DNA from: Patescibacteria group bacterium
Lineage (GTDB): Bacteria; Patescibacteriota; Dojkabacteria; J137
DNA length: 64,000 bases
Assembly (NCBI GenBank): GCA_016861265.1
Contig: BOLA01000001.1
Location: 598,229-662,228, forward strand
Direction of reading: 5' to 3'
Below, piece after piece: positions 4,865-22,034 of the stretch. Below the pieces are notes generated by a model. That model was given only the letters and a program-made list of their open reading frames with translations, was not told the DNA's origin and made no database searches. The translations under genes were made by a program, and so were the position numbers. Position 1 is the first letter of the stretch. The number at the start of each line of letters is the position of its first letter.

Positions 4865-6583
4865 TTACTCTTGAGATCTTAGCGAGTTTAAAATTTCTTC
4901 AGAATCAGCACCTTCTACGATAATTATATCGCCCGATTTTATAAGGGTTCTGGTAGTAAATAGCAATTCGTTAACATTCCTAGATTTTAGGCTAAGGATA
5001 TCAAGGTAGCTATGTGCAAGCAAAGTGTAAAGTAAGGGATCTGTAGTTACAACTATAGAAACTTTCTGTTTTAATTTTTCAGTTAATCTAGCATAGGATT
5101 TTCTTTTTAATTTCCCCAATTCGCTAACTCCATCGGTTAGCAATATTATTCGTCCATGTTTAAACTTTCTCTTAATATTGTTTGCGTAATCTACAGCAGC
5201 CAGAACTCCTTTTAGGTTGCTGTCTGGGTTACCTGTGGATATTAATAGAGTATGATCATCACCTTCTAGGGTGTATATATTAGTGAATTTATCGGATAAT
5301 TTGCCCACTTTTTCTCTAACTGTTTTTTCGTCAATACCTGTTCGTTTGGCAGCCAGTATTGCCGGTACTAGCTGATGTACTAGGCTTAGTCTGTGTATTG
5401 GTGTTGAGTATTCACTGATCTTGTCTTTGGATTTAAACATGAACTTATAACCTTCAACCGATCTTTTGTAGATCTCTATAAAAAATAGTTCATTAAGTTT
5501 GCTAGATTTTTTATCCAAAAACGAGAAACCAATTTTTTCTCCTGGAAATTTATTCAAATAATGTAGTATATATTTGTTATCAATTGGTGCGATTACGCTT
5601 CCATTGTGATTAGTTCCTTTTATAAGCTCTAATCTTGCTTCTATATATTCCTGTTTATTTTTGAATGAACCATAGTGCTGAACGTCAATGTCTGTGATAA
5701 TTGAAATATCCGGACTAATAATCCTGCAAATGCTTTCTACTTCGCCTTTCTTGAAAGGTTCAATTTCAACTAATAATATTTGGGTGCCAGCTGTAATTTG
5801 GGTAGTTATATCGTAACTTAGTTCTTCTATTGTAGTATAAACATCACCTGTTTTAACAATGGAGTAGTCGTCCTTCAGTAACTTGAATAAGAGTTCCTTA
5901 GTTACTGTTTTCCCTATGCTACCGGTAATGGCAATGACAATAATGTTGTTCCTATATCGAGATAACTTGTCATTCAATTGGTGTACCGCAACTTTATTTC
6001 TAAACCATCCAATAGGGCTGGTAATTAAGATTATTAAAGCTGTGATTATTGGAGAAGCGATATCTAAAAACAAAGCGATTATTGCTGAAAGACCTAGGTA
6101 TACATATACATCGTAGATGGTATACATATTGGCATTGCTTACCCCGGGTAATATCAAGTTTTCTCTTTGTAGAGAAGCAAACGGTAGCGACACAATTATT
6201 ATTAGAAAGCTTACTAGTATACTTAATAATGTTAATACAACTGTATTTCTGGTGTTAATTCTTATGGATTCTGATTTACCGGAAAATACTTTTTCTAGAA
6301 GCATAAAGATTTCCACGGCCCAAATTGTGTATGCAATTAAGACTCCTATACTTGAAGTGTAAACAGAAACAACTAGCGTACAAGTTAAACTGAATACAAT
6401 ATATTTAAGTAGCGTGAGTAGAAAATCCCTGTTGTTAGGAAGATGGTCCCACCTAATAAAATTATAAAAACGCTCAACTCTGTACTGCTTTTGCTGCCAT
6501 AAGTGTAGATTCCAAAGTACATTCTTGAATAGAATCACTACTGGAGGAAGCCAAAATAGGACTACTAAGACTAAAAATTCCAT
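4865..6583 (-). CDS. Mur ligase family protein (MurF-like central and C-terminal domains) fused to an N-terminal polytopic membrane domain
   Basis: About 190 N-terminal residues contain 4-5 hydrophobic helices. They are followed by the Mur ligase P-loop IVIAITGSIGKTVTKELL, a MurF-like ISIITDIDVQH motif and the C-terminal ISTGNPDSNLKGVLAAV region. Confidence 0.65.
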   Translation of the reverse strand: MEFLVLVVLFWLPPVVILFKNVLWNLHLWQQKQYRVERFYNFIRWDHLPNNRDFLLTLLKYIVFSLTCTLVVSVYTSSIGVLIAYTIWAVEIFMLLEKVFSGKSESIRINTRNTVVLTLLSILVSFLIIIVSLPFASLQRENLILPGVSNANMYTIYDVYVYLGLSAIIALFLDIASPIITALIILITSPIGWFRNKVAVHQLNDKLSRYRNNIIVIAITGSIGKTVTKELLFKLLKDDYSIVKTGDVYTTIEELSYDITTQITAGTQILLVEIEPFKKGEVESICRIISPDISIITDIDVQHYGSFKNKQEYIEARLELIKGTNHNGSVIAPIDNKYILHYLNKFPGEKIGFSFLDKKSSKLNELFFIEIYKRSVEGYKFMFKSKDKISEYSTPIHRLSLVHQLVPAILAAKRTGIDEKTVREKVGKLSDKFTNIYTLEGDDHTLLISTGNPDSNLKGVLAAVDYANNIKRKFKHGRIILLTDGVSELGKLKRKSYARLTEKLKQKVSIVVTTDPLLYTLLAHSYLDILSLKSRNVNELLFTTRTLIKSGDIIIVEGADSEEILNSLRSQE

Positions 6584-12377: not shown

Positions 12378-13655
12378 ATGTCAATAATTTCAGAAGATAA
12401 GCAGAAAGTTCGAAACCTTGTTGATCAAGGTAAAAAGCAGGGTTACTTGACCCACGACGATATTTTGGATGTTTTCCCAGAGGTAGAAGATAATTTAAAT
12501 CTTCTTGAATACATAATAACTAGTCTTCAAGACCAAGATATAGAATTAATCGAGCCTTTAGAGGACTCCGACTTAAAGTTTGCAGCCGGTGCCGCAAGCA
12601 AAATGTCGTTCGAAGAGAAAATTAGAATTCTAAAGCAGATTAAATCCCATGTAAGTACTGACCCAATTAGGGCCTATTTACAGGAAATCGGTAAAATCCC
12701 ATTACTTAGTGCAGAAGAAGAAGTGATTTTAGCTAAAAGAATAGAGGATGCAGAAGCCGAATTCTTAAAGGCTATCCCAGAAATTGCAAAAAAGAATGTA
12801 GACCCAATTTACGAAAAGGCTGCAAAAGTAATTTCTAAGGGTACGAAAAAGAATCCAAGTATTGAAGCAAGTAAAAAAAGAATAGCAGAAAAGGATAAGA
12901 GATTCCTAAATGAGAAAATGAAGTTAGGAATGGAAGCAAAACATTTACTTACAACTGCAAACCTAAGACTTGTAGTTTCTATTGCCAAGAATTACCTAAA
13001 GAGAGGTTTAGATTTACTAGATTTAATTCAAGAAGGTAATTTAGGCTTAATGAGAGCGGTAGATAAGTTCGAATATAGAAAAGGATTTAAATTTTCTACT
13101 TATGCCACATGGTGGATTAGACAGGCTATTACAAGAGCTATTGCTGATCAGGCTAGAACAATTAGAGTTCCAGTTCATATGATTGAAACAATTAATAAGT
13201 TAAGTAAAGTTTCATCTCAGTTGGCAGCCAAATTAGGAAGAAAGCCAACTCCTAAAGAAATTGCAGATGAGATGGGATTATCAATTCAAAAAGTAAACGA
13301 AATTATTAAGATTGCTCAAAAGCCTCAATCATTAGAAGCACCTATAGGAGATGAGTCAGATGCAAGTAGTTTAAGTGATATTATTGCAGATGAATACACA
13401 GCTTCTCCACAGGAATTGGCTACATGGTCATACTTAAAGAAGCAGATTAACGAAATATTAGGCAATTTATCTGATAGAGAAAGAAAAGTTCTTGAACTAA
13501 GGTTTGGCCTAAGAGATGGTGTAGCACGAACATTAGAAGAAGTTGGGCATGAATTTAATGTTACGAGAGAACGAATTCGACAGATAGAAGCCAAGGCTTT
13601 AAGAAGAATTAAGAGTGATGAAATTGCTCAGGCCCTAAGAGATTATTTAAACTAA
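12378..13655 (+). CDS. rpoD: RNA polymerase primary sigma factor (sigma-70/RpoD)
   Basis: Regions 1.2 to 4 are present: [91 protein letters not shown], and C-terminal region 4 ([27 protein letters not shown]). Confidence 0.9.
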
Positions 13656-13706
13656 AAGTATATAGTGGTAGACTGAAAGAGTAATATTTCGTCTACCACT
13701 TTTTTA

Positions 13707-14594
13707 ATGTATACAGATTTAAGTAATAAAGCTTCGAATAAAAATACTTCAGAAAGATACAGAATTTGGTTATTACAATCCCAATACGATTTAAAAGCCG
13801 CAGAAGAATCCCTTAAAGATAGATACTATGAGTGGTCATGCTATCAATCAGTGCAATCGGTAGAGAAAGCTCTTAAGGCAGTTATTATTCATGCTGGTTG
13901 GAGATCTCCAATGACCCATAAACTTGGTGTGCTGCTAAGCATGTGCAACAGAGCAAATGATAGTTTTAGAACAGTAAAATTCAATTTTAGAAAGATTGAG
14001 GCCTACACCTTTATTACAAGATATCCATTTATTTATCCTGATCAAAATATTACACCTCATGACTTAATAACCGAGAATGACGCCAAAACTTGTTTGGATA
14101 TTGCAACTTCTATGATTAACAAGGTAGAGGAATTTCTTCATCAGAAAAAGCCGAATTCACAAGATAAAGGCGATATTGATCTTGAAAATTACTACTTCAC
14201 TCCGGAAGAAGTTGAAGCAAGGCTAGAATCAGTTATAAAAGAACTATCTTCTGATTCACAATTACATGTTTCCAAAATTGTACTATTTGGTTCTTTTTCA
14301 AGAGAAAAATTACACCCAAGATCAAGCACTATGGATATGTTAATAGTTGCCGAAACAGAATTGCCATTCATTGAGAGAATTCAATATGTAAGAGAATTAA
14401 CTAAAGATGAGGAGCCAATTATTGAACCATTGATCTATACATCAAAAGAATTCGACTTTATGCTTAAGGACGAAAGAGAAGGTTATGTTGAAAGTGCAAT
14501 TGATGAGGGAAAAGTTTTGTTTGATAGATCCATTTCTGATACTAATGCAGATCAGGTGGGTGTACAGGAAGCCGCCCCAAGAATCACGACCTAA
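13707..14594 (+). CDS. fused HEPN-domain / minimal-nucleotidyltransferase (MNT-like) protein
   Basis: N-terminal HEPN-like helical domain with an Rx4H motif (RSPMTH). C-terminal NTase-like segment VLFGSFSREKLHPRSSTMDMLIVAE: the GS motif is present but the DxD acidic pair is degenerate. Confidence 0.55.
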   Translation: MYTDLSNKASNKNTSERYRIWLLQSQYDLKAAEESLKDRYYEWSCYQSVQSVEKALKAVIIHAGWRSPMTHKLGVLLSMCNRANDSFRTVKFNFRKIEAYTFITRYPFIYPDQNITPHDLITENDAKTCLDIATSMINKVEEFLHQKKPNSQDKGDIDLENYYFTPEEVEARLESVIKELSSDSQLHVSKIVLFGSFSREKLHPRSSTMDMLIVAETELPFIERIQYVRELTKDEEPIIEPLIYTSKEFDFMLKDEREGYVESAIDEGKVLFDRSISDTNADQVGVQEAAPRITT

Positions 14595-14661: not shown

Positions 14662-15696
14662 TTGGAAGTATTAATTTTTATAATTCTTTTTATGCGAGTT
14701 CGTAAAAAGCACATTCTTACAGTTCTTCTGTTGGGAACTCTAGGAGTTAATATCCCGATACTGGCTGCCGTAGGGCAGTGGTCTGTTTCGGGAAACAACA
14801 TGTATTATATTGATGGTTTGGTGGGCATCGGTAAAGATGTTCCATCTTCTCCATTGCACATTCAAAAGTCTTCAGTAATTGATACTGCCCAAAGAGTTGA
14901 ATTGGAGGGTAGTCTATCTGGTGCAGATTGGGAGGCAATTAGAATTAATGCCAATGCTAATTTCTCAAACTCAAATTCAATATCTTGGGAGTTTGATAGT
15001 ATAAATGGTGCAACCGGTCCTGCAATATCGGCGTATAGAACCTCCGGTGCAGATACGGATTTAACATTATCTGCGACAAAAAATGATTTGAGAAATGAAA
15101 TCATACGTTTGAAAGGTGCAACTGGAAATGTCGGAATTGGCAATAATGCACCCGGGGCTAAACTTGATGTAAAAGGGAATAATAATTTAGGCAATAGTCC
15201 AAATGTAGTAGCAGCTTTTAGAGCAAATAATCATGCCGGTGTAATTATAGGTAGTTTGAATGGTAATACACCATATATTGGTGATGATCCAGGTGCAAGT
15301 TCCTCTGTTGGGTTATCCTTTTTTACTAATGGACAAGAACGAATGAGGATTAAAAACGATAATGGGAATATTGGAATCGGCACAACAAATCCTAAACACA
15401 AATTATCGGTTAACGGAACTATTCTAGCCAAAGAAGTTATTGTTTCGATTGCTGGTTCAAATTGGCCTGACTATGTTTTTGAGGATGGATATAAACTTAG
15501 TCCTTTATCCGAAGTAGAAAATTATATAAAGGAAAATAATCATTTGCCAAATATACCTAGTGCAAAAGAAGTTGAAGAAAAGGGTATTTCCTTAGGAGAA
15601 ATGCAAAAAATGCAAATGGCAAAAATAGAGGAACTGACTTTGTATATTATTGAGCTTGAAGCAAGGATAAGTAAATTGGAAAATGGAGATAATTAA
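14662..15696 (+). CDS. secreted tail-fibre-like / head-repeat protein with a C-terminal coiled-coil domain
   Basis: Signal/TM at the N-terminus. Gly/Asn-rich repeats (GNVGIGNNAPGAKLDVKG..., NIGIGTTNPKHKLSVNG) of the type seen in phage tail-fibre and Hep_Hag-like proteins. Conserved-looking C-terminus (NWPDYVFEDGYKLSPLSEVENYIKENNHLPNIPSAKEV...EELTLYIIELEARISKLE). Confidence 0.5.
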   Translation: MEVLIFIILFMRVRKKHILTVLLLGTLGVNIPILAAVGQWSVSGNNMYYIDGLVGIGKDVPSSPLHIQKSSVIDTAQRVELEGSLSGADWEAIRINANANFSNSNSISWEFDSINGATGPAISAYRTSGADTDLTLSATKNDLRNEIIRLKGATGNVGIGNNAPGAKLDVKGNNNLGNSPNVVAAFRANNHAGVIIGSLNGNTPYIGDDPGASSSVGLSFFTNGQERMRIKNDNGNIGIGTTNPKHKLSVNGTILAKEVIVSIAGSNWPDYVFEDGYKLSPLSEVENYIKENNHLPNIPSAKEVEEKGISLGEMQKMQMAKIEELTLYIIELEARISKLENGDN

Positions 15697-15718
15697 TTTA
15701 ATTATTGATATTTGATAT

Positions 15719-16393
15719 ATGAGAAAATTTGTGATATTCGCAGGGGCTTTAGTGATATTTGGAATAGGTGCTGCCGTCTTCTTACTCACTAATAACAGCA
15801 GTAGTGATACTGAAAATTTTACCCATCCTTTAAATGAAAGTTGGACTATTAAAGATGGTTATAGTCAGATTGATAATCAAGAATCCAGCTATAGATTTCA
15901 ATATAGATCAAGTTTATTTGTCACCGATACTCCAAGAGATGACTTCGTACATATTTTAGATGGCAATACCATAGCACTAGCATCTAAACCTTCCAGAGGA
16001 TATCAATTACCCCAAGTGAGTATAATATCGTTAGATAGATCTATTATGGGAGGTATGTCTCTTGAGAATTGGGTTAAGTATGCGTCATCAATGAGCTCGG
16101 AAGATATTCAATCAGATCATGAAAGATATAGATACTTAACAAACGGTTACAAAGTAATTTCGGAAGGGAAGATCTTCTTTTTAGTGGATCTAACTGGGTT
16201 CTCCAATACCCCACCAATTTTATTGTTTGATAATGGCAACAAGCTGATAGAAGTAGCAAGCTATTGGGCTGATGATCTATACTTTGAAATTTTACAGGAC
16301 TTTCAAGTCAAGTTCGATGATGGTTATCTACAGTTAACCAATGAGGAAGTAAATATTATTAAGACATACTATGAAGAAAATGACGTTTATTAA
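15719..16393 (+). CDS. hypothetical membrane-anchored protein
   Basis: N-terminal TM (FVIFAGALVIFGIGAAVFLL), no recognisable domain. The 3' end overlaps the next ORF by 23 nt. Confidence 0.4.
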   Translation: MRKFVIFAGALVIFGIGAAVFLLTNNSSSDTENFTHPLNESWTIKDGYSQIDNQESSYRFQYRSSLFVTDTPRDDFVHILDGNTIALASKPSRGYQLPQVSIISLDRSIMGGMSLENWVKYASSMSSEDIQSDHERYRYLTNGYKVISEGKIFFLVDLTGFSNTPPILLFDNGNKLIEVASYWADDLYFEILQDFQVKFDDGYLQLTNEEVNIIKTYYEENDVY

Positions 16394-17759
16394 AGTATTT
16401 GCACTAATCTTAATATCTTTCACACTATTATCAGGTTTCGATATTAGAGCAATTAAAAATGATGATTTACCTACTTCATTTGAAGCAAATAAGCTCACAG
16501 GTGGGATTGTAAGCTATCCTGTTAGTTCGCCAAAACCTCCATCCATAAAATTTGGAGATAGTATAAGTATTGATACAGCTTCGCTAGATGAAGCCAGATT
16601 CTTTGATTCTACCGATAATATTGAATACAGTGGTATTCTTAAAATCAGAGATACTCCATTTGAAGTTACACTTTTTCGTAATAGTCAAAATTTAAAGCTT
16701 CGGGAATGGGTAAATACTTTTTATCCACTTAATACAGTAGATGAAGATGGCTTCCTGAGCGATTTTACCGCTAAGCAATCCAGGGAGTTAAGTGCCAATA
16801 CTATGAGTTTATTGAATAAATATGAAGGTACCTATTATATTAGCTATCTTAAGGAGTACGAAAGAAAAGTACTATCATTGACATTCTCTATTGAGTATTA
16901 CGATGCAAATGATATTGATGAAATACTCAGCATGGTAAAAGTTGCAGGGAAACAATTTGATGATAATATATTCTCAGGAAAACAAGAGTTCAATCGTCTA
17001 AAAGATAGATTGATAGAATACAACAAAGAGAAAAATAATGTAAATCATTATGAGATAAGAACTAGAAAACTTGGAGCGGATACAGTTTACTATTTACCTT
17101 GGACGAAAGACCAAACATATCCAATAACACAGGATTGGGGAATCAATGATAATCCTATTGATTATAATTTGTCTCATTCCACTCAACCGAATGGGTATGC
17201 ATACGATTTTGGACTACCCGAAGGAACTGATGTACTGGCATCTAGTGAGGGCACTGTAACATATGCTCGCTCAGGATCGACAAGTTGTGGTGGGCCAAGT
17301 TATATAAATAGTGCAAATTATGTAGTAATAGCACATGCAGATGGTAAGGCTACTAACTATTATCATCTTCAGTCTATAAATGTTTCGGTAGGAGATAATG
17401 TGCAACAAGGGCAGTTAATCGGGAAGTCAGGAAAAACTGGATTTACTGCTGAATTTGATGGTGGGTCCTGTGCACCTCATTTACATTTTCAAAAACAAAT
17501 TCAGGGAGCAAGTTATACAGACTCAGTTCCAGTTATCTTCGCTGAATATTCAAATCAACCCGGTGACGGAGAAATTCCTTATCCTATGTCCGTTACTTCG
17601 CAAAATGAACTTACTACTGGTGGAGGCTCAAATTGTTTAGTTAAAACCGATTGGATAACTAATGGCCCAAATACAATATCAAATTCGAATTGTATTACGA
17701 TTAGGTCCGAATCTACGATTAGATCAATAAATGGTACAACTCGTTTTTATATACAATAA
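16371..17759 (+). CDS. secreted M23-family (LytM-type) peptidoglycan metalloendopeptidase
   Basis: Signal peptide. GYAYDFGLPEGTDVLASSEGTV ... NYVVIAHADGKATNYYHLQSINVSVGDNVQQGQLIGKSGKTG ... APHLHFQ supplies the HxxxD and HxH zinc ligands of M23. Confidence 0.8.
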   Translation: MKKMTFIKVFALILISFTLLSGFDIRAIKNDDLPTSFEANKLTGGIVSYPVSSPKPPSIKFGDSISIDTASLDEARFFDSTDNIEYSGILKIRDTPFEVTLFRNSQNLKLREWVNTFYPLNTVDEDGFLSDFTAKQSRELSANTMSLLNKYEGTYYISYLKEYERKVLSLTFSIEYYDANDIDEILSMVKVAGKQFDDNIFSGKQEFNRLKDRLIEYNKEKNNVNHYEIRTRKLGADTVYYLPWTKDQTYPITQDWGINDNPIDYNLSHSTQPNGYAYDFGLPEGTDVLASSEGTVTYARSGSTSCGGPSYINSANYVVIAHADGKATNYYHLQSINVSVGDNVQQGQLIGKSGKTGFTAEFDGGSCAPHLHFQKQIQGASYTDSVPVIFAEYSNQPGDGEIPYPMSVTSQNELTTGGGSNCLVKTDWITNGPNTISNSNCITIRSESTIRSINGTTRFYIQ

Positions 17760-17771
17760 GTCAAAACCAAT

Positions 17772-18263
17772 ATGAGAATTAATAATAAATATACATACTT
17801 CATTATTCTTTTTATCTTGCTAGGTATTATCTTCTATCTCTATCAAGCGATGCAATCCAGTGTAACTTCGACTCCGTTAAATGATGATACATCAATAATT
17901 AACTCTAATGAAAGCGATACAAATACTGGAGATTATCAAAGTAATACTGATTCTGGAAATTTATCATCAGACGTGAATAAACCATACACATTCTTGTACT
18001 CCTCTGAATTAGTAAATAAAAAAGAAGATAAAGTTCCTGGCAATATAGATTACGCAGAGTTTGTGACAACAACCGAAGCGTACTCTCACTCACTATACCA
18101 GATGCCGGGAATTTATCTTTACTTCTATCCTTTTCAAAAAGATCTTGGTAGTTGGTTTAATGATAGAAGGGCAATTAATGTAGGTGAACTATCTCAAGAA
18201 AAGCTTTTTATAGCAGATAATCCACAGGGAATTCGATCGTATTTAGTAACAAAACTCCTATGA
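17772..18263 (+). CDS. hypothetical membrane-anchored protein
   Basis: N-terminal TM (YTYFIILFILLGIIFYLY), Ser/Asn/Asp-rich linker. Confidence 0.4.
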   Translation: MRINNKYTYFIILFILLGIIFYLYQAMQSSVTSTPLNDDTSIINSNESDTNTGDYQSNTDSGNLSSDVNKPYTFLYSSELVNKKEDKVPGNIDYAEFVTTTEAYSHSLYQMPGIYLYFYPFQKDLGSWFNDRRAINVGELSQEKLFIADNPQGIRSYLVTKLL

Positions 18264-18449
18264 TTGATTCTATTTCTGTTTTAGTAAAGTTGAACTCGGG
18301 GATACTAATGTTTCACAATCTGAACTACGGTTCAGATGCAATGTTTAATCCAATTCTTCTTAATGTGCTGGAGAGCCTTAAAGAAAATGGAAATTTAGTT
18401 CTATCAGAAAGAGACATAAAACAAATTAATGAATTTTTAAAATAATTAA

Positions 18450-19211
18450 ATGAAGACAATATTAATATATATGTTTATTTTCTCAATACTTGTAGGTAGT
18501 GTAGTTGCTGTAAATGCTGAGAGTAGATTTATCTCTTATCCAATACAAACAAATACAGAACTTCTTCAATACAATGTTTCCGAGAAAATGGAGTTAAATG
18601 AAGTTATGAAAGATCAAAAAGATATAAATCTACAGGATCTAGGTTTAGGGGTTCTTAATAAGAAAAGGGATCTGTACTACTACACCACAAAAGATCATAA
18701 TAGTTGGGGGGCTAATAAATTTATTAATGTATATTCATTAAAAGAGAAACGTATCATTCAAAGGATTCCTTTTGACAACACGGGATACTATAAATACCCT
18801 ATTTCAATTAGCCCAGATAATAAAAAGATTGTCCTAGCTGAAAGAGCGCAGAGCGTGGGCGAAGTTAATATCTTGGTAATAGATTCGGATACAGGTAATA
18901 CCTTAACCATATTTACAAAAGCTTATGCCCCTACCGCGGTATGGCTAGATTCTGATTCTGTAGTAACCATGTTTCCTCGCGTTAGTTGCTCAAGTAATAG
19001 ATACTGCGACCTCGATGGTATTAACTTAAAGCTAAGTAATCTGAAAATAAAAGAAGATAGACAGTTAGAGGTTAGTGGTAATGAAGTTTCACTGCAACTA
19101 GACCATCTAGAGTTAATTTCTGACAAAATAAATATTAGGTCGAAGCTACGAGAAGACAGCGAGCATGAGTCAAGGTTACAATTAAATGTTAAATTATTAA
19201 AGAATGAATAA
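18450..19211 (+). CDS. hypothetical secreted protein
   Basis: Signal peptide (ILIYMFIFSILVGSVVAVNA). No family recognised. Confidence 0.4.
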   Translation: MKTILIYMFIFSILVGSVVAVNAESRFISYPIQTNTELLQYNVSEKMELNEVMKDQKDINLQDLGLGVLNKKRDLYYYTTKDHNSWGANKFINVYSLKEKRIIQRIPFDNTGYYKYPISISPDNKKIVLAERAQSVGEVNILVIDSDTGNTLTIFTKAYAPTAVWLDSDSVVTMFPRVSCSSNRYCDLDGINLKLSNLKIKEDRQLEVSGNEVSLQLDHLELISDKINIRSKLREDSEHESRLQLNVKLLKNE

Positions 19212-19842
19212 ATGTGTTGCCTCCATATTTCTATTGATTATGATAATTTTTCCGTTACAAAAAACATTGGCTTGGGAATACCCTTCTAATGATAGTGGCT
19301 ACCCCTACAGAGATTCAGAGGAAGATTTAGTCGATCAATGGAATACATACACAAGAAATTGTACTTCATACGTAATGTGGAAGATAAATCAAACGGGTAT
19401 GAGTTTTAATAATAATCCCACGGGACCCAACGGTAATTCTACAACTATGGGGAATGCTGGTAACTGGGATGAACATGCTTCTAACATAGGCTATACTGTT
19501 GATAGCAATCCCGGTGCAGGGGATGTGATGAATTGGGAAGCTAATAGTGGTGGTGCAGGAAGTGCAGGTCATGTCGCATGGGTAGAAAAAGTTAACGATA
19601 ATGGAACAGTATTTTTATCGGAATGGAATTGGAATTATGGAGATGGGTTATATTCTGAAAGAAATGGCTATAGTGGAGATCACTACCTACACATTGCAAC
19701 TACTAGTGTCTTAAATTGTACACAAATTCAAAATATAACAATTAATTCAGGACAAAATCTAAACTGTTCAAGTAGTAATGTTAGAGTATTGCCTGAATCT
19801 CTATTTAGTAGTGGTAGTAGTATTAATTTAAAATCTATATAA
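19204..19842 (+). CDS. secreted CHAP-domain peptidoglycan hydrolase (amidase/peptidase)
   Basis: Signal peptide. CHAP catalytic Cys context (RNCTSYVMWKI) and His context (SAGHVAWVEKV), with aromatic Gly/Asn-rich spacing typical of CHAP. Confidence 0.7.
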   Translation: MNKCVASIFLLIMIIFPLQKTLAWEYPSNDSGYPYRDSEEDLVDQWNTYTRNCTSYVMWKINQTGMSFNNNPTGPNGNSTTMGNAGNWDEHASNIGYTVDSNPGAGDVMNWEANSGGAGSAGHVAWVEKVNDNGTVFLSEWNWNYGDGLYSERNGYSGDHYLHIATTSVLNCTQIQNITINSGQNLNCSSSNVRVLPESLFSSGSSINLKSI

Positions 19843-19845
19843 AGA

Positions 19846-20412
19846 ATGAAAAGGAGATTAATAATATTAGCTTTTTTAGTATTTACTATAACCTTGTTGG
19901 TATTGCATTCTGTTAGTCAAATTCAGACCAACAAAAGTGCTAGTAGTGAGAATATTAATAAAAGTAATGAAGTGAAGGAAATTAATCCTAATGTTGAGTA
20001 CACACATCCCAGTGGTAAATTCTCCTACACTTACCCTGCATCTTGGGAGTTTGTACCAAAAAGAGAAGATATAGGACTAAGACCCTTAGAATACAGCGGT
20101 CCGTTGAAAAATGAAATTGTAACCATAATATATTTTGAGGAAAAGGGTAAGGATTTAAAAGCTTGGGCCAAGACATTTGATGGTGGGTACGATGAAGATT
20201 GGATTGAGAAAACCGTTTTCAACAAAAAAGCCCTCTACTATAACTATAATAGTGATAAGTTAGACAACATGATCTACTACTTTAGCAACGGTACAGATGC
20301 GGTAAAAGTTATGTTCAGAAAGTATTATGCTTTAGGGGTAGAGGGGCAACGCGATAATTCAAGATTCTTAGAAGATTTTGAACTAATTCTAAAAAGTTTC
20401 AAATTCAATTGA
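19846..20412 (+). CDS. hypothetical secreted protein
   Basis: Signal/TM at the N-terminus (LIILAFLVFTITLLVL). No family recognised. Confidence 0.4.
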   Translation: MKRRLIILAFLVFTITLLVLHSVSQIQTNKSASSENINKSNEVKEINPNVEYTHPSGKFSYTYPASWEFVPKREDIGLRPLEYSGPLKNEIVTIIYFEEKGKDLKAWAKTFDGGYDEDWIEKTVFNKKALYYNYNSDKLDNMIYYFSNGTDAVKVMFRKYYALGVEGQRDNSRFLEDFELILKSFKFN

Positions 20413-20456: not shown

Positions 20457-22034
20457 TTACTTAGCTTCTTCTGTCGCTCTTAATTCTCTAATAACGTTAA
20501 CCTTAATAACACCAGGGTAGTTTTGGGTTTCCTCGATTTCTTTTGCAATTTTAAATGCCATAACTCTAGTATCTTCATCAGTTACATCTTCAGGTTTTAC
20601 AATAACTCTAACTTCTCGGCCAGCATGAATAGCATAAGCTTCTTTAACTCCACCATGCTTTCTTGCAATATCTTCTAAGGCTCTAACCCTCTTAATGTAT
20701 TCTTCGTAAGAATCTCTTCTTGCACCTGGTCTAGCACCAGAAATTGCATCAGCAATTCTTACAATCTCGGCTTCAATAAATTTTGCATCAATGTCGTAGT
20801 GGTGTGCTTCAATTGCGTTATACAATCTGTCGTTATTTTTAAAGTATTTTCTAGCAACTTCCCCAGAAATATGGTGGTGCTGCTTTCCTTCTTCAGGTGC
20901 AACTTTACCAATGTCATGTAATAAGCAAGCTAGTTTTACTGTTTGAACATCAGCTCCCATTTCAAGGGCTAACGATTCTCCAATCTTTACCATTTCTAGA
21001 GTATGCTTTACTAAGTTCTGTCCAAAGCTGAATCTATATTTAAATCTACCTAAAAGCATAATTACTTCTGTAGGAAGATTATTAAAGCCTGTCTCGTAGG
21101 CCATGTCTTCTCCAGTCTTTTTTATTACTTTTAATAAGTCCTTTTTTACTTTTTCAACTGTTTCCTCAATTGCTCCTGGGTGAACTCTTCCATCATCTAA
21201 AAGTTTTTTAAGTGCTAAAGCTCCAACTTCTCTTCTAATTGGATCGAAACAAGATAGTGTGACTTGATTAGGAGCCTCATCTACAATTAAATCTACTCCT
21301 GTTAATTTCTCGAAGGTTCTAATATTCCTACCATCCTTACCGATGATTTTTCCTTTCATTGCTTCGTCATCAATGGTGAATGTAGTTGTAGTTGTTTCCA
21401 CAACATAATCAGTTGCAGCATTAACCATTGTTTCAACTAAGATCTCTCGGGAAATTTCGTCATTTCGTAAGTTTATTTGATCCTGGTTTTCTCTAATTTT
21501 CTTAGCGAACCAGTCTTGAAGATCTCTTTCTACTTGGGCCTTAAGCTGAACCTCAGCTTCTTGCTTGGTGAGTCCGGCAATTTGTTGTAATTTTAATCCT
21601 AGTTCCTCTCTAACTTTTGTAACGTCTTTTTTGGCTTGCTCAAGACTTCTTTCTTTTGCTTCGATTGAATTGGCCCTTTCGTCAATGCTTTTAGCTCTAG
21701 ACAAAAGACCTCTTTCCCTATCGTCAAGAATTCGCTCCTGTTCTTTTAATTTCTCTCGAATGTCTCTTGCAGCTGCTTGAGCTTTACTTTCAAGCTCTAA
21801 TACATTTTTCTCAGCCTCTAATAATTTGTTTTTTGCAATCTGGCTCGCTTTCTCTATGGCTTGCTCTTCAGTCAAATTAGCCATTGATTTGCCTTTTTCA
21901 ATCGCTGCTGCAACTTGTTTTGCAGCTTCTTCCTTAACTTTTTTATTCTGATTGTTAAGATAGAACGCAACTACTCCAAAAAGAGTGGCAAGAACCAGCA
22001 AAACTGCTAAAACAAGCAATAATGCTACGTCCAT
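20457..22034 (-). CDS. rny: ribonuclease Y
   Basis: N-terminal TM, coiled-coil region, KH domain (IIGKDGRNIRTFEKLTGVDLIVD) and HD domain (LLHDIGK). Length 525 aa. Confidence 0.9.
   Translation of the reverse strand: MDVALLLVLAVLLVLATLFGVVAFYLNNQNKKVKEEAAKQVAAAIEKGKSMANLTEEQAIEKASQIAKNKLLEAEKNVLELESKAQAAARDIREKLKEQERILDDRERGLLSRAKSIDERANSIEAKERSLEQAKKDVTKVREELGLKLQQIAGLTKQEAEVQLKAQVERDLQDWFAKKIRENQDQINLRNDEISREILVETMVNAATDYVVETTTTTFTIDDEAMKGKIIGKDGRNIRTFEKLTGVDLIVDEAPNQVTLSCFDPIRREVGALALKKLLDDGRVHPGAIEETVEKVKKDLLKVIKKTGEDMAYETGFNNLPTEVIMLLGRFKYRFSFGQNLVKHTLEMVKIGESLALEMGADVQTVKLACLLHDIGKVAPEEGKQHHHISGEVARKYFKNNDRLYNAIEAHHYDIDAKFIEAEIVRIADAISGARPGARRDSYEEYIKRVRALEDIARKHGGVKEAYAIHAGREVRVIVKPEDVTDEDTRVMAFKIAKEIEETQNYPGVIKVNVIRELRATEEAK

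Follow-up and report, generated by a model that had tools for sequence, protein, structure and literature searches.

Domains and conserved residues of the fused gene

The stretch analysed here, referred to below as the window, is a 64,000-nt (64-kb) segment of contig BOLA01000001.1 from a Patescibacteria group bacterium of the class Dojkabacteria. It contains a gene whose single product joins an N-terminal HEPN domain to a C-terminal minimal nucleotidyltransferase (MNT) of the DNA polymerase beta (Pol-beta) fold. The open reading frame (ORF) and its parts are the following, in window coordinates:

13707..14594, plus strand: fused HEPN-T/minimal nucleotidyltransferase ORF, from ATG to stop, 295 aa plus the stop codon
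13758..14132, plus strand: HEPN domain of the HEPN-T/PF05168 type (aa 18-142)
14133..14225, plus strand: variable inter-domain linker (aa 143-173), delimited from the alignment, the model confidence profile and the split ORFs of loci L051-L057
14226..14531, plus strand: MNT of the Pol-beta fold (aa 174-275)

The fusion had been proposed in an earlier note on this DNA, together with the profile searches that could verify it. In Pfam, the N-terminal part matches the HEPN family PF05168 with 83.5 bits (gathering score 22, E=1.6e-23), covering positions 1-116 of the 117 of the profile. The nucleotidyltransferase (NTase) part is recognised by two overlapping families, Polbeta PF18765 (29.8 bits over aa 185-275, gathering score 26.9) and NTP_transf_2 PF01909 (27.2 bits over aa 174-250, gathering score 21). 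Since both domains score above the gathering thresholds, the two-domain organisation is confirmed. No NCBIfam family exceeds its cut-off for the 295-aa protein, the MntA equivalog NF047752 reaching 14.6 bits where 60 are required. The sole match in PADLOC-DB is the candidate system PDC-S09, which is weak (24 bits or less), restricted to the NTase part (aa 168-250) and judged to reflect a generic MNT similarity. No second HEPN or MNT was found within the 64-kb window, where the gene is single-copy.

An AlphaFold2 model of the 295-aa protein was obtained with 38 homologues as input (predicted local distance difference test, pLDDT, 82.6; predicted template modelling score, pTM, 0.73). The N-terminal part is predicted to form a four-helix up-and-down bundle that can be superposed on the solved HEPN-T structures, and the C-terminal part a Pol-beta alpha/beta fold. 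The lowest model confidence is found in the linker at residues 151-160 (mean pLDDT 57), and the complete linker (aa 143-173) matches the region where the two genes overlap in the split forms described below. The structural matches include the HepT/MntA-type entries 7aer, 5yep, 8xeh and 8xeo; no solved chain with both domains in the HEPN-to-NTase order is present among them. A sequence search of the PDB recovers only stand-alone HEPN proteins, namely ST0689 (1wol), TT1696 (1ufb), TM0613 (1o3u) and the HEPN of sacsin (3o10). Unlike the window protein, the stand-alone HEPN-T proteins (these first three and AF0298, 2hsb) are single-domain, and sacsin HEPN is a domain of a giant eukaryotic chaperone; no NTase is fused to any of them, and the functions known for them go no further than nucleotide binding.

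The conservation of individual residues was determined by a census of 51 HEPN and 52 NTase sequences taken from the orthologous loci of species-representative genomes. The sites of interest in the HEPN part are listed below:

13902..13919, plus strand: RSPMTH (aa 66-71), the string taken for an Rx4H motif in the earlier note; P68 and H71 are its sole invariant residues
13917-13919, plus strand: H71, the alternative histidine of HEPN-T families, located from the census of the 51 orthologues, the secondary structure and the literature (PMC3710099)
14019..14027, plus strand: R105-Y106-P107, invariant (51/51); R105 belongs to the helix 95-105 of the model
14058..14060, plus strand: H118, a second invariant histidine in the loop between helices 3 and 4, preceded by the invariant P117 (alignment and census)

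The residues invariant in 51/51 HEPN sequences are E53, K54, K57, H71, K72, R105-Y106-P107, P111, P117 and H118. The earlier note had described RSPMTH as a conserved Rx4H motif that might contribute to a composite HEPN RNase site. The string does exist, but R66 is an arginine in only 29/51 orthologues (N, K, V, S, P, Q, T or H in the others), and the model shows residues 63-72 as the loop that joins helix 2 (aa 41-62) to the helix of aa 73-83, whereas the canonical HEPN Rx4-6H motif is located at the end of helix 3 (PMC3710099). In addition, an Rx4H is present in 28% of composition-preserving shuffles of the 295-aa protein. Because R66 is poorly kept, the position is wrong and the pattern is frequent in shuffles, the literal motif is a chance match and was rejected as the active-site Rx4H. 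Should the protein turn out to be an inactive remnant, the lesson would be limited to this: a literal Rx4H string does not count as evidence for a HEPN active site.

The predicted helix 95-105, helix 3 of the bundle, ends with R105, which is therefore the canonical HEPN arginine. No histidine is found 4-6 residues after R105: positions 110-112 are I-P-D, and the canonical histidine position is D112 here and G, D, S or N across the orthologues. The invariant H71, located in the loop 63-72 between two helices, is as in the AF0298-like subgroup of HEPN-T (PMC3710099). In the HEPN-T families (PF05168), such an alternative conserved histidine was proposed as a possible alternative active site (Anantharaman et al. 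2013, PMC3710099). The HEPN/MNT modules of class II are defined by a PF05168 HEPN that lacks RX4HXY but has a conserved tyrosine, associated with a PF01909 MNT (Yao et al. 2020, PMC7641770). The window protein has the same two Pfam families as these modules and as HEPN-T, no RX4HXY, a tyrosine beside the arginine (RYP) and a conserved histidine upstream. Judged from its residues, the HEPN part matches the HEPN-T/class II pattern, with Y106 as the class II tyrosine and as a candidate acceptor of nucleotidylation.

Three sites were located in the NTase part:

14289..14294, plus strand: G195-S196, the hG[GS] box (LFG195-S196), from the census
14328..14336, plus strand: T208-M209-D210 at the canonical DxD position, from the alignment and the census
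14424..14426, plus strand: E240 (in IIEPLIY), the third active-site carboxylate, conserved in 49/52 sequences and replaced by D or N in the three orthologues with E208

The GS box is kept, as noticed earlier; G195 is invariant, and position 196 is S in 30 sequences, R in 14, G in 6 and T or A in one each. The reduction of DxD to a single aspartate, also seen in the earlier note, turns out to be conserved: T208-M-D210 aligns with SDIDFL of 9xbd_E and SDIDIA of MntA (5yep_A), D210 is invariant, and T208 is found in 49/52 orthologues with E in the three others, all split forms. The position thus carries one carboxylate in place of the pair of the [DE]h[DE]h motif, and the third carboxylate is present. 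The motif is GSx11TxD in the window and G[S]x11-T-x-D in its family, in contrast to the GSX10DXD expected of a class II MNT partner. The three exceptions (L051, L056 and L057) alter both positions together, combining E-x-D (SEMD or SEID) with D or N at position 240; this paired change suggests that a metal site is maintained. Among the closest stand-alone MNTs, S, T or A replaces the first aspartate in 54 of the best 120 clusters. Thr-x-Asp is a feature of the whole family and not the decay of one sequence, and both the HEPN and the NTase sites are under purifying selection.

In MntA, both aspartates of DxD coordinate both Mg2+ ions, and the D39E/D41E double mutant loses AMPylation (PMC7641770). 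As this pair is essential, the threonine in place of its first aspartate sets the window protein genuinely apart from the mechanism known for the characterised members. One explanation is that the protein is a dead pseudo-enzyme, whose T-x-D domain binds a nucleotide or nothing and which acts as a sensor, a scaffold or an RNA-binding factor, perhaps with a winged helix-turn-helix (wHTH) MNT-like protein where this is present (see below). The loss of one of three carboxylates across the family, the S/T/A replacements in the stand-alone MNTs and the proposal of non-catalytic RNA-binding HEPN domains (PMC3710099) agree with this idea. Nevertheless, G195, T208, D210 and E240 are conserved over orthologues of 38-87% identity, where more drift would be expected of a site in decay, and the coupled changes from T/E to E/(D,N) speak for a maintained metal site. 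We regard a dead enzyme as unlikely.

Distribution, gene order and split forms

A word-indexed protein search detected 110 homologue clusters, including an identical protein (P0001), with identities down to 40%. Their members have 257-300 aa, except for a few truncated entries (169-221 aa). All named members belong to Candidatus Dojkabacteria (WS6), and some are annotated by JGI as [quoted passage not shown]. The scan of GTDB species representatives yielded 51 loci with an orthologue (38-87% identity), all from Dojkabacteria or from evidently mislabelled metagenome-assembled genomes (MAGs). Outside Dojkabacteria, in the other phyla of this set, the identity drops sharply to 30% or less. A Dojkabacteria-type locus with the same synteny occurs in MAGs titled "uncultured Candidatus Saccharibacteria bacterium" (L007, L008, L011, L014, L017-L021, L026 and others); these titles look like taxonomic mislabels.

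The genes flanking these loci were annotated with phmmer. The order ftsZ, sortase (minus strand), rpoD and HEPN-NT gene is kept in 22 loci. On the other side, the RNase Y gene (rny) lies downstream in convergent orientation in 37/51 loci and is followed by amidase_3, parB and parA; the distance to rny is 9 bp in L021, 77 bp in L015 and up to about 4 kb in relatives. In the window, rny is located as follows:

20457-22034, minus strand: rny (RNase Y)

The convergent rny is suggestive of a role in RNA metabolism and proves nothing beyond synteny. The window protein has a median identity of 50% with its orthologues, to be compared with 77% for RpoD, 76% for FtsZ, 65% for ParB, 60% for RNase Y, 51% for the sortase and 40% for amidase_3. 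The HEPN-NT protein thus diverges at a core-gene-like rate, near that of the flanking housekeeping genes. On these comparisons, the gene is a vertically inherited chromosomal gene at a fixed locus of the class Dojkabacteria, within the candidate phyla radiation (CPR).

Seven Dojkabacteria species (L051-L057) have this locus split into two genes, the first for the HEPN (140-153 aa) and the second for the MNT (116-119 aa). The latter begins 57-75 nt ahead of the HEPN stop codon, in another frame and with a conserved MNT N-terminus (for example 5977-6399 and 6342-6695 in L052). The complete HEPN-to-NT architecture is rare, since an exhaustive profile search of 1.84 billion cluster representatives detected it in only a handful of clusters, after which the scores drop from 239 to 148 bits. 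The other top representatives (148 cluster representatives) comprise 48 fusions in the NT-to-HEPN order, 46 of them with a canonical DxD, and 7 in the HEPN-to-NT order. In other phyla the two domains are encoded by separate genes, MNT first as usual and often in arrays. Two to three tandem class II MNT/HEPN-T modules per locus were seen in L059, L066, L073 and L079, which come from non-CPR bacteria and one archaeon. Such tandem modules are the expansion pattern expected of toxin-antitoxin (TA) systems, unlike the single copy of Dojkabacteria.

These data bear on the proposal of the earlier note that the gene could be a self-contained defence or stress module. In its explicit form, this would be a single-chain type VII-like TA or defence module, where a HEPN RNase toxin (H71/R105/H118) is neutralised through AMPylation by the MNT until a phage, a stress or proteolysis triggers it. 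Type VII TA systems have the HEPN/MNT pair as their archetype, and the fused protein FhepTA (compared below) operates in this way. For HEPN-T and AbiV, an active site with an alternative histidine has been put forward (PMC3710099), the NTase part gives the weak PDC-S09 matches of PADLOC, and the gene adjoins a variable region. The proposal nonetheless fits poorly with a gene that keeps its position and is inherited vertically over 51 Dojkabacteria loci, diverges like a housekeeping gene and is single-copy in the window without multi-copy arrays such as those of L059, L066, L073 and L079. Furthermore, the Rx4-6H is absent, the MntA equivalog score is far below its cut-off, the first catalytic aspartate is lost, and the order is reversed relative to TA dyads, where the MNT is almost always 5' (PMC3710099). 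We consider a TA or defence module to be distinctly improbable.

The split arrangement is also encountered beyond Dojkabacteria. Five stand-alone MNTs with an [S/T/A]-x-D motif were inspected, and all five (5/5) have an overlapping HEPN-T gene immediately upstream. In L086, L089, L092 and L093, which are all four of those with enough upstream sequence, the HEPN-T gene is itself preceded by a gene of about 197 aa, named f197 here. L086 is from candidate division CPR3 (GCA_000990575.1) and the three others are CPR-like contigs; three of the four loci adjoin secD/secF. In 27-28 Dojkabacteria species of more distant clades (among L028-L057), f197 likewise comes immediately before the HEPN(-MNT) gene, often with an overlap of 1-4 nt, and recA precedes f197 in those clades. 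Examples of f197 have the following positions within their loci:

L029, 5381-5974: f197
L036, 5399-5992: f197
L086, 3076-3654: f197
L089, 3042-3638: f197
L092, 438-1034: f197
L093, 583-1179: f197

The AlphaFold2 model of f197 (pLDDT 90.3) predicts a winged helix of the ArsR/SmtB type, matched by HlyU, NolR and CzrA, and after it an MntA-like fold (6m6u_F, 7bxo). In the NTase-like domain of f197 the GS box is missing and only one aspartate is invariant; a partner that is likewise degenerate is a further point for the pseudo-enzyme explanation mentioned above. At E<=1e-5 the f197 family comprises over 7,900 clusters, most of them labelled hypothetical. Neither f197 nor recA was found in the 64-kb window, and no f197 homologue from the window's own contig is present among the best 120 of the more than 7,900 matches.

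As the gene arrangements show, the fused gene is orthologous to the overlapping HEPN-then-MNT pair, which stays unfused in other CPR lineages and in the seven Dojkabacteria species; fused and split forms are equivalents. It probably goes back to an ancestral CPR cassette composed of f197, HEPN and MNT([S/T/A]xD), the last two genes of which were fused within Dojkabacteria, with a later rearrangement that placed rpoD upstream in the clade of the window. A more far-reaching idea, which we find rather doubtful, is that the window gene represents the fused form of a CPR-wide, vertically inherited cassette (wHTH-degenerate MNT, HEPN-T and S/T/A-x-D MNT) that was domesticated from a class II TA to serve as a housekeeping system in reduced genomes. 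Such a cassette could for instance be a one-metal or non-catalytic nucleotide sensor gating HEPN-mediated RNA binding or cleavage alongside the RNase Y, RecA or SecDF loci. If the cassette idea were true, a cellular role could for the first time be assigned to a class II HEPN/MNT module, and a functional Pol-beta NTase site would for the first time be seen with Thr/Ser instead of the first aspartate.

In P0118 (391 aa), from the search of the representatives, a PNPase-like N-terminal part and a T-x-D MNT domain meet at the peptide "KPEKII", which they share. This is probably an assembly or gene-call chimera and not a real fusion.

Comparison with characterised systems and possible mechanism

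Fusions of HEPN-T to MNT are listed among the known architectures (PMC3710099, Table 1). That survey argues that fused HEPN domains usually lack the RNase residues, derive from domesticated TA systems and have a substrate-binding or regulatory function. The class II modules known elsewhere have the MNT almost always first and are sporadic or expanded, whereas the window fused form and the CPR split forms have the HEPN first, and the window gene is single-copy, syntenic and vertically inherited. The type VII HepT/MntA systems (SO_3166/SO_3165 of S. oneidensis and the HEPN-MNT of L. pneumophila, PMC11586414) belong to the same superfamilies and have the same folds. They differ from the window protein by separate genes, a 5' MNT and the RX4HXY and GSX10DXD motifs. 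Their nucleotide pocket is composite, lying between MNT and HEPN, and in the complex with AMP-PNP residues of HepT contact the nucleotide (PMC7641770).

Fused MNT-HEPN TA proteins were characterised in 2026, with FhepTA from Shewanella (PMC13000451). This protein resembles the window protein in having MNT and HEPN in one polypeptide, with a short linker in FhepTA, and it self-oligoAMPylates a tyrosine beside the HEPN motif (PMC13000451). FhepTA is, however, MNT-first and class I (DUF86-type HEPN, R-phi-xxxH and a canonical NTase motif) and is carried by prophages or mobile islands, none of which applies to the window gene. Neither of the class I HEPN families of Pfam, PF01934 (DUF86) and PF08780 (NTase_sub_bind), matches the window protein.

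The earlier note had also evoked a KNTase-like enzyme with the domain order reversed. Indeed KNTase, ANT(4') and related two-domain NTases combine a Pol-beta-fold NTase with a helical KNTase_C/HEPN-clan domain in a single chain, and the order is opposite. Membership in the KNTase family itself was rejected: PF07827 does not match, the structural match exists at the domain level only, and there is no resistance-gene context. A broader version, a housekeeping two-domain NTase comparable to KNTase or GlnE, would use the HEPN as a substrate-binding lid and modify an external RNA 3' end, a protein or a small molecule. This scheme benefits from the substrate-binding or regulatory role typical of MNT-fused HEPN domains without RNase residues (PMC3710099), from the place of PF05168 in the KNTase_C clan, from the core-gene-like distribution, and from the conservation of the NTase site (G and D invariant, E in 49/52). 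It is weakened by T208, which replaces a metal ligand essential in the characterised members, and by the lack of any KNTase_C, GlnE or CCA-type profile match in Pfam and NCBIfam. The invariant tyrosine of RYP and the two invariant histidines suggest more than a passive lid, and the gene neighbourhood yields no candidate substrate. An enzyme of this type does not seem likely to us.

We favour, as a tentative but quite conceivable reading, a domesticated single-chain class II HEPN/MNT module, where a regulated and probably slow nucleotidylation of Y106 would gate the interaction of the HEPN with RNA. The HEPN and NTase domains would build one composite nucleotide-binding pocket, as they do in HepT-MntA, HI0073/HI0074 and KNTase; such a pocket exists in every characterised relative and is therefore to be expected here by analogy. 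On the NTase side, G195-S196, T208, D210 and E240 would hold Mg-NTP with two carboxylates and a hydroxyl. The HEPN side would supply H71/K72, R105-Y106 and H118. A slow or regulated nucleotidyl transfer could then target the invariant Tyr106, either in the same subunit or in a partner, and this modification would gate the action of the HEPN on RNA, be it binding or cleavage. The module would thus have been domesticated into a housekeeping regulator, as opposed to an addictive or defensive TA pair. A precedent is provided by MntA, which tri-AMPylates a tyrosine of HepT (PMC7641770), and the self-AMPylation of FhepTA (PMC13000451) makes a transfer within one chain feasible. By comparison with these systems, Y106 is inferred to be the class II counterpart of the AMPylated tyrosine of HepT.

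Several points weigh against this Y106-gating mechanism. The first metal-binding aspartate is a threonine, so that the transfer activity may be weak or absent. Biochemical data are nonexistent for any class II HEPN/MNT module (PMC7641770). The wHTH-MNT-like protein f197 is absent from the window, so the logic of the cassette may not apply here. Finally, rny is convergent and not operonic with the gene, and its proximity may reflect a conserved synteny only.

The window gene is a class II module that behaves as a core gene in bacteria with genomes of about 1 Mb, with a fixed locus, a slow evolution, invariant residues in both domains, an altered [S/T/A]-x-D motif and a reversed order. This combination argues for the domestication of a TA module into a cellular function. 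[quoted passage not shown] A literature search found no paper linking HEPN/MNT to CPR or Dojkabacteria; a paper on the essential genome of Sulfolobus mentions HEPN-NT only as ordinary TA pairs. The HEPN-first order, the conserved [S/T/A]-x-D motif of the MNT, the lineage-wide synteny in reduced CPR genomes and the wHTH-MNT-like partner appear to be undescribed. Nothing here contradicts the existing HEPN/MNT frameworks.

Flanks of the gene in the window

The rpoD stop codon is at 13655, upstream of the ATG of the fused gene at 13707, and a hairpin is found between them:

13665..13705, plus strand: hairpin and T6 run between the rpoD stop and the ATG (fold of -21.5 kcal/mol for a 66-nt stretch, z=-5.7)

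The hairpin has a 9-bp stem (GTGGTAGAC/GTCTACCAC) and a 17-nt loop, and is terminator-like or attenuator-like. No Shine-Dalgarno sequence is visible before the ATG, the hairpin leaving no space for it. The stem is kept only in the two closest relatives (L007 and L008), and the spacing between rpoD and the gene is 6-20 nt in other genomes. The consensus scan misses the hairpin because its loop is long. With a negative consensus scan and a stem limited to L007 and L008, a conserved terminator was ruled out.

Downstream, a variable block separates the HEPN-NT gene from rny:

14662-20412, plus strand: 5.9-kb variable block with seven ORFs, from the HEPN-NT gene to rny
16371-17759, plus strand: M23 peptidase (Pfam)
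19204-19842, plus strand: CHAP domain protein (Pfam)
19846-20412, plus strand: PsbP_2-like protein, a weak match (Pfam)

The other four of the seven ORFs have no match in Pfam. In related genomes the gap to rny measures between 9 bp and about 4 kb, so that the site looks like a hot-spot of insertion. The earlier note had located the gene at the edge of a cell-wall-hydrolase accessory region. The gene does adjoin this variable block, but it is not a part of it: in view of the synteny conserved across the loci, the HEPN-NT gene is the last of the conserved backbone genes, with the accessory region inserted beside it.

The first ORF of the block (14662-15696, 344 aa), directly 3' of the HEPN-NT gene and among those without a Pfam match, encodes a protein with a hydrophobic N-terminus, Gly/Asn-rich repeats and a coiled-coil-like C-terminal tail. 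By eye, this product resembles the C-terminal domains of tail-fibre or surface proteins.

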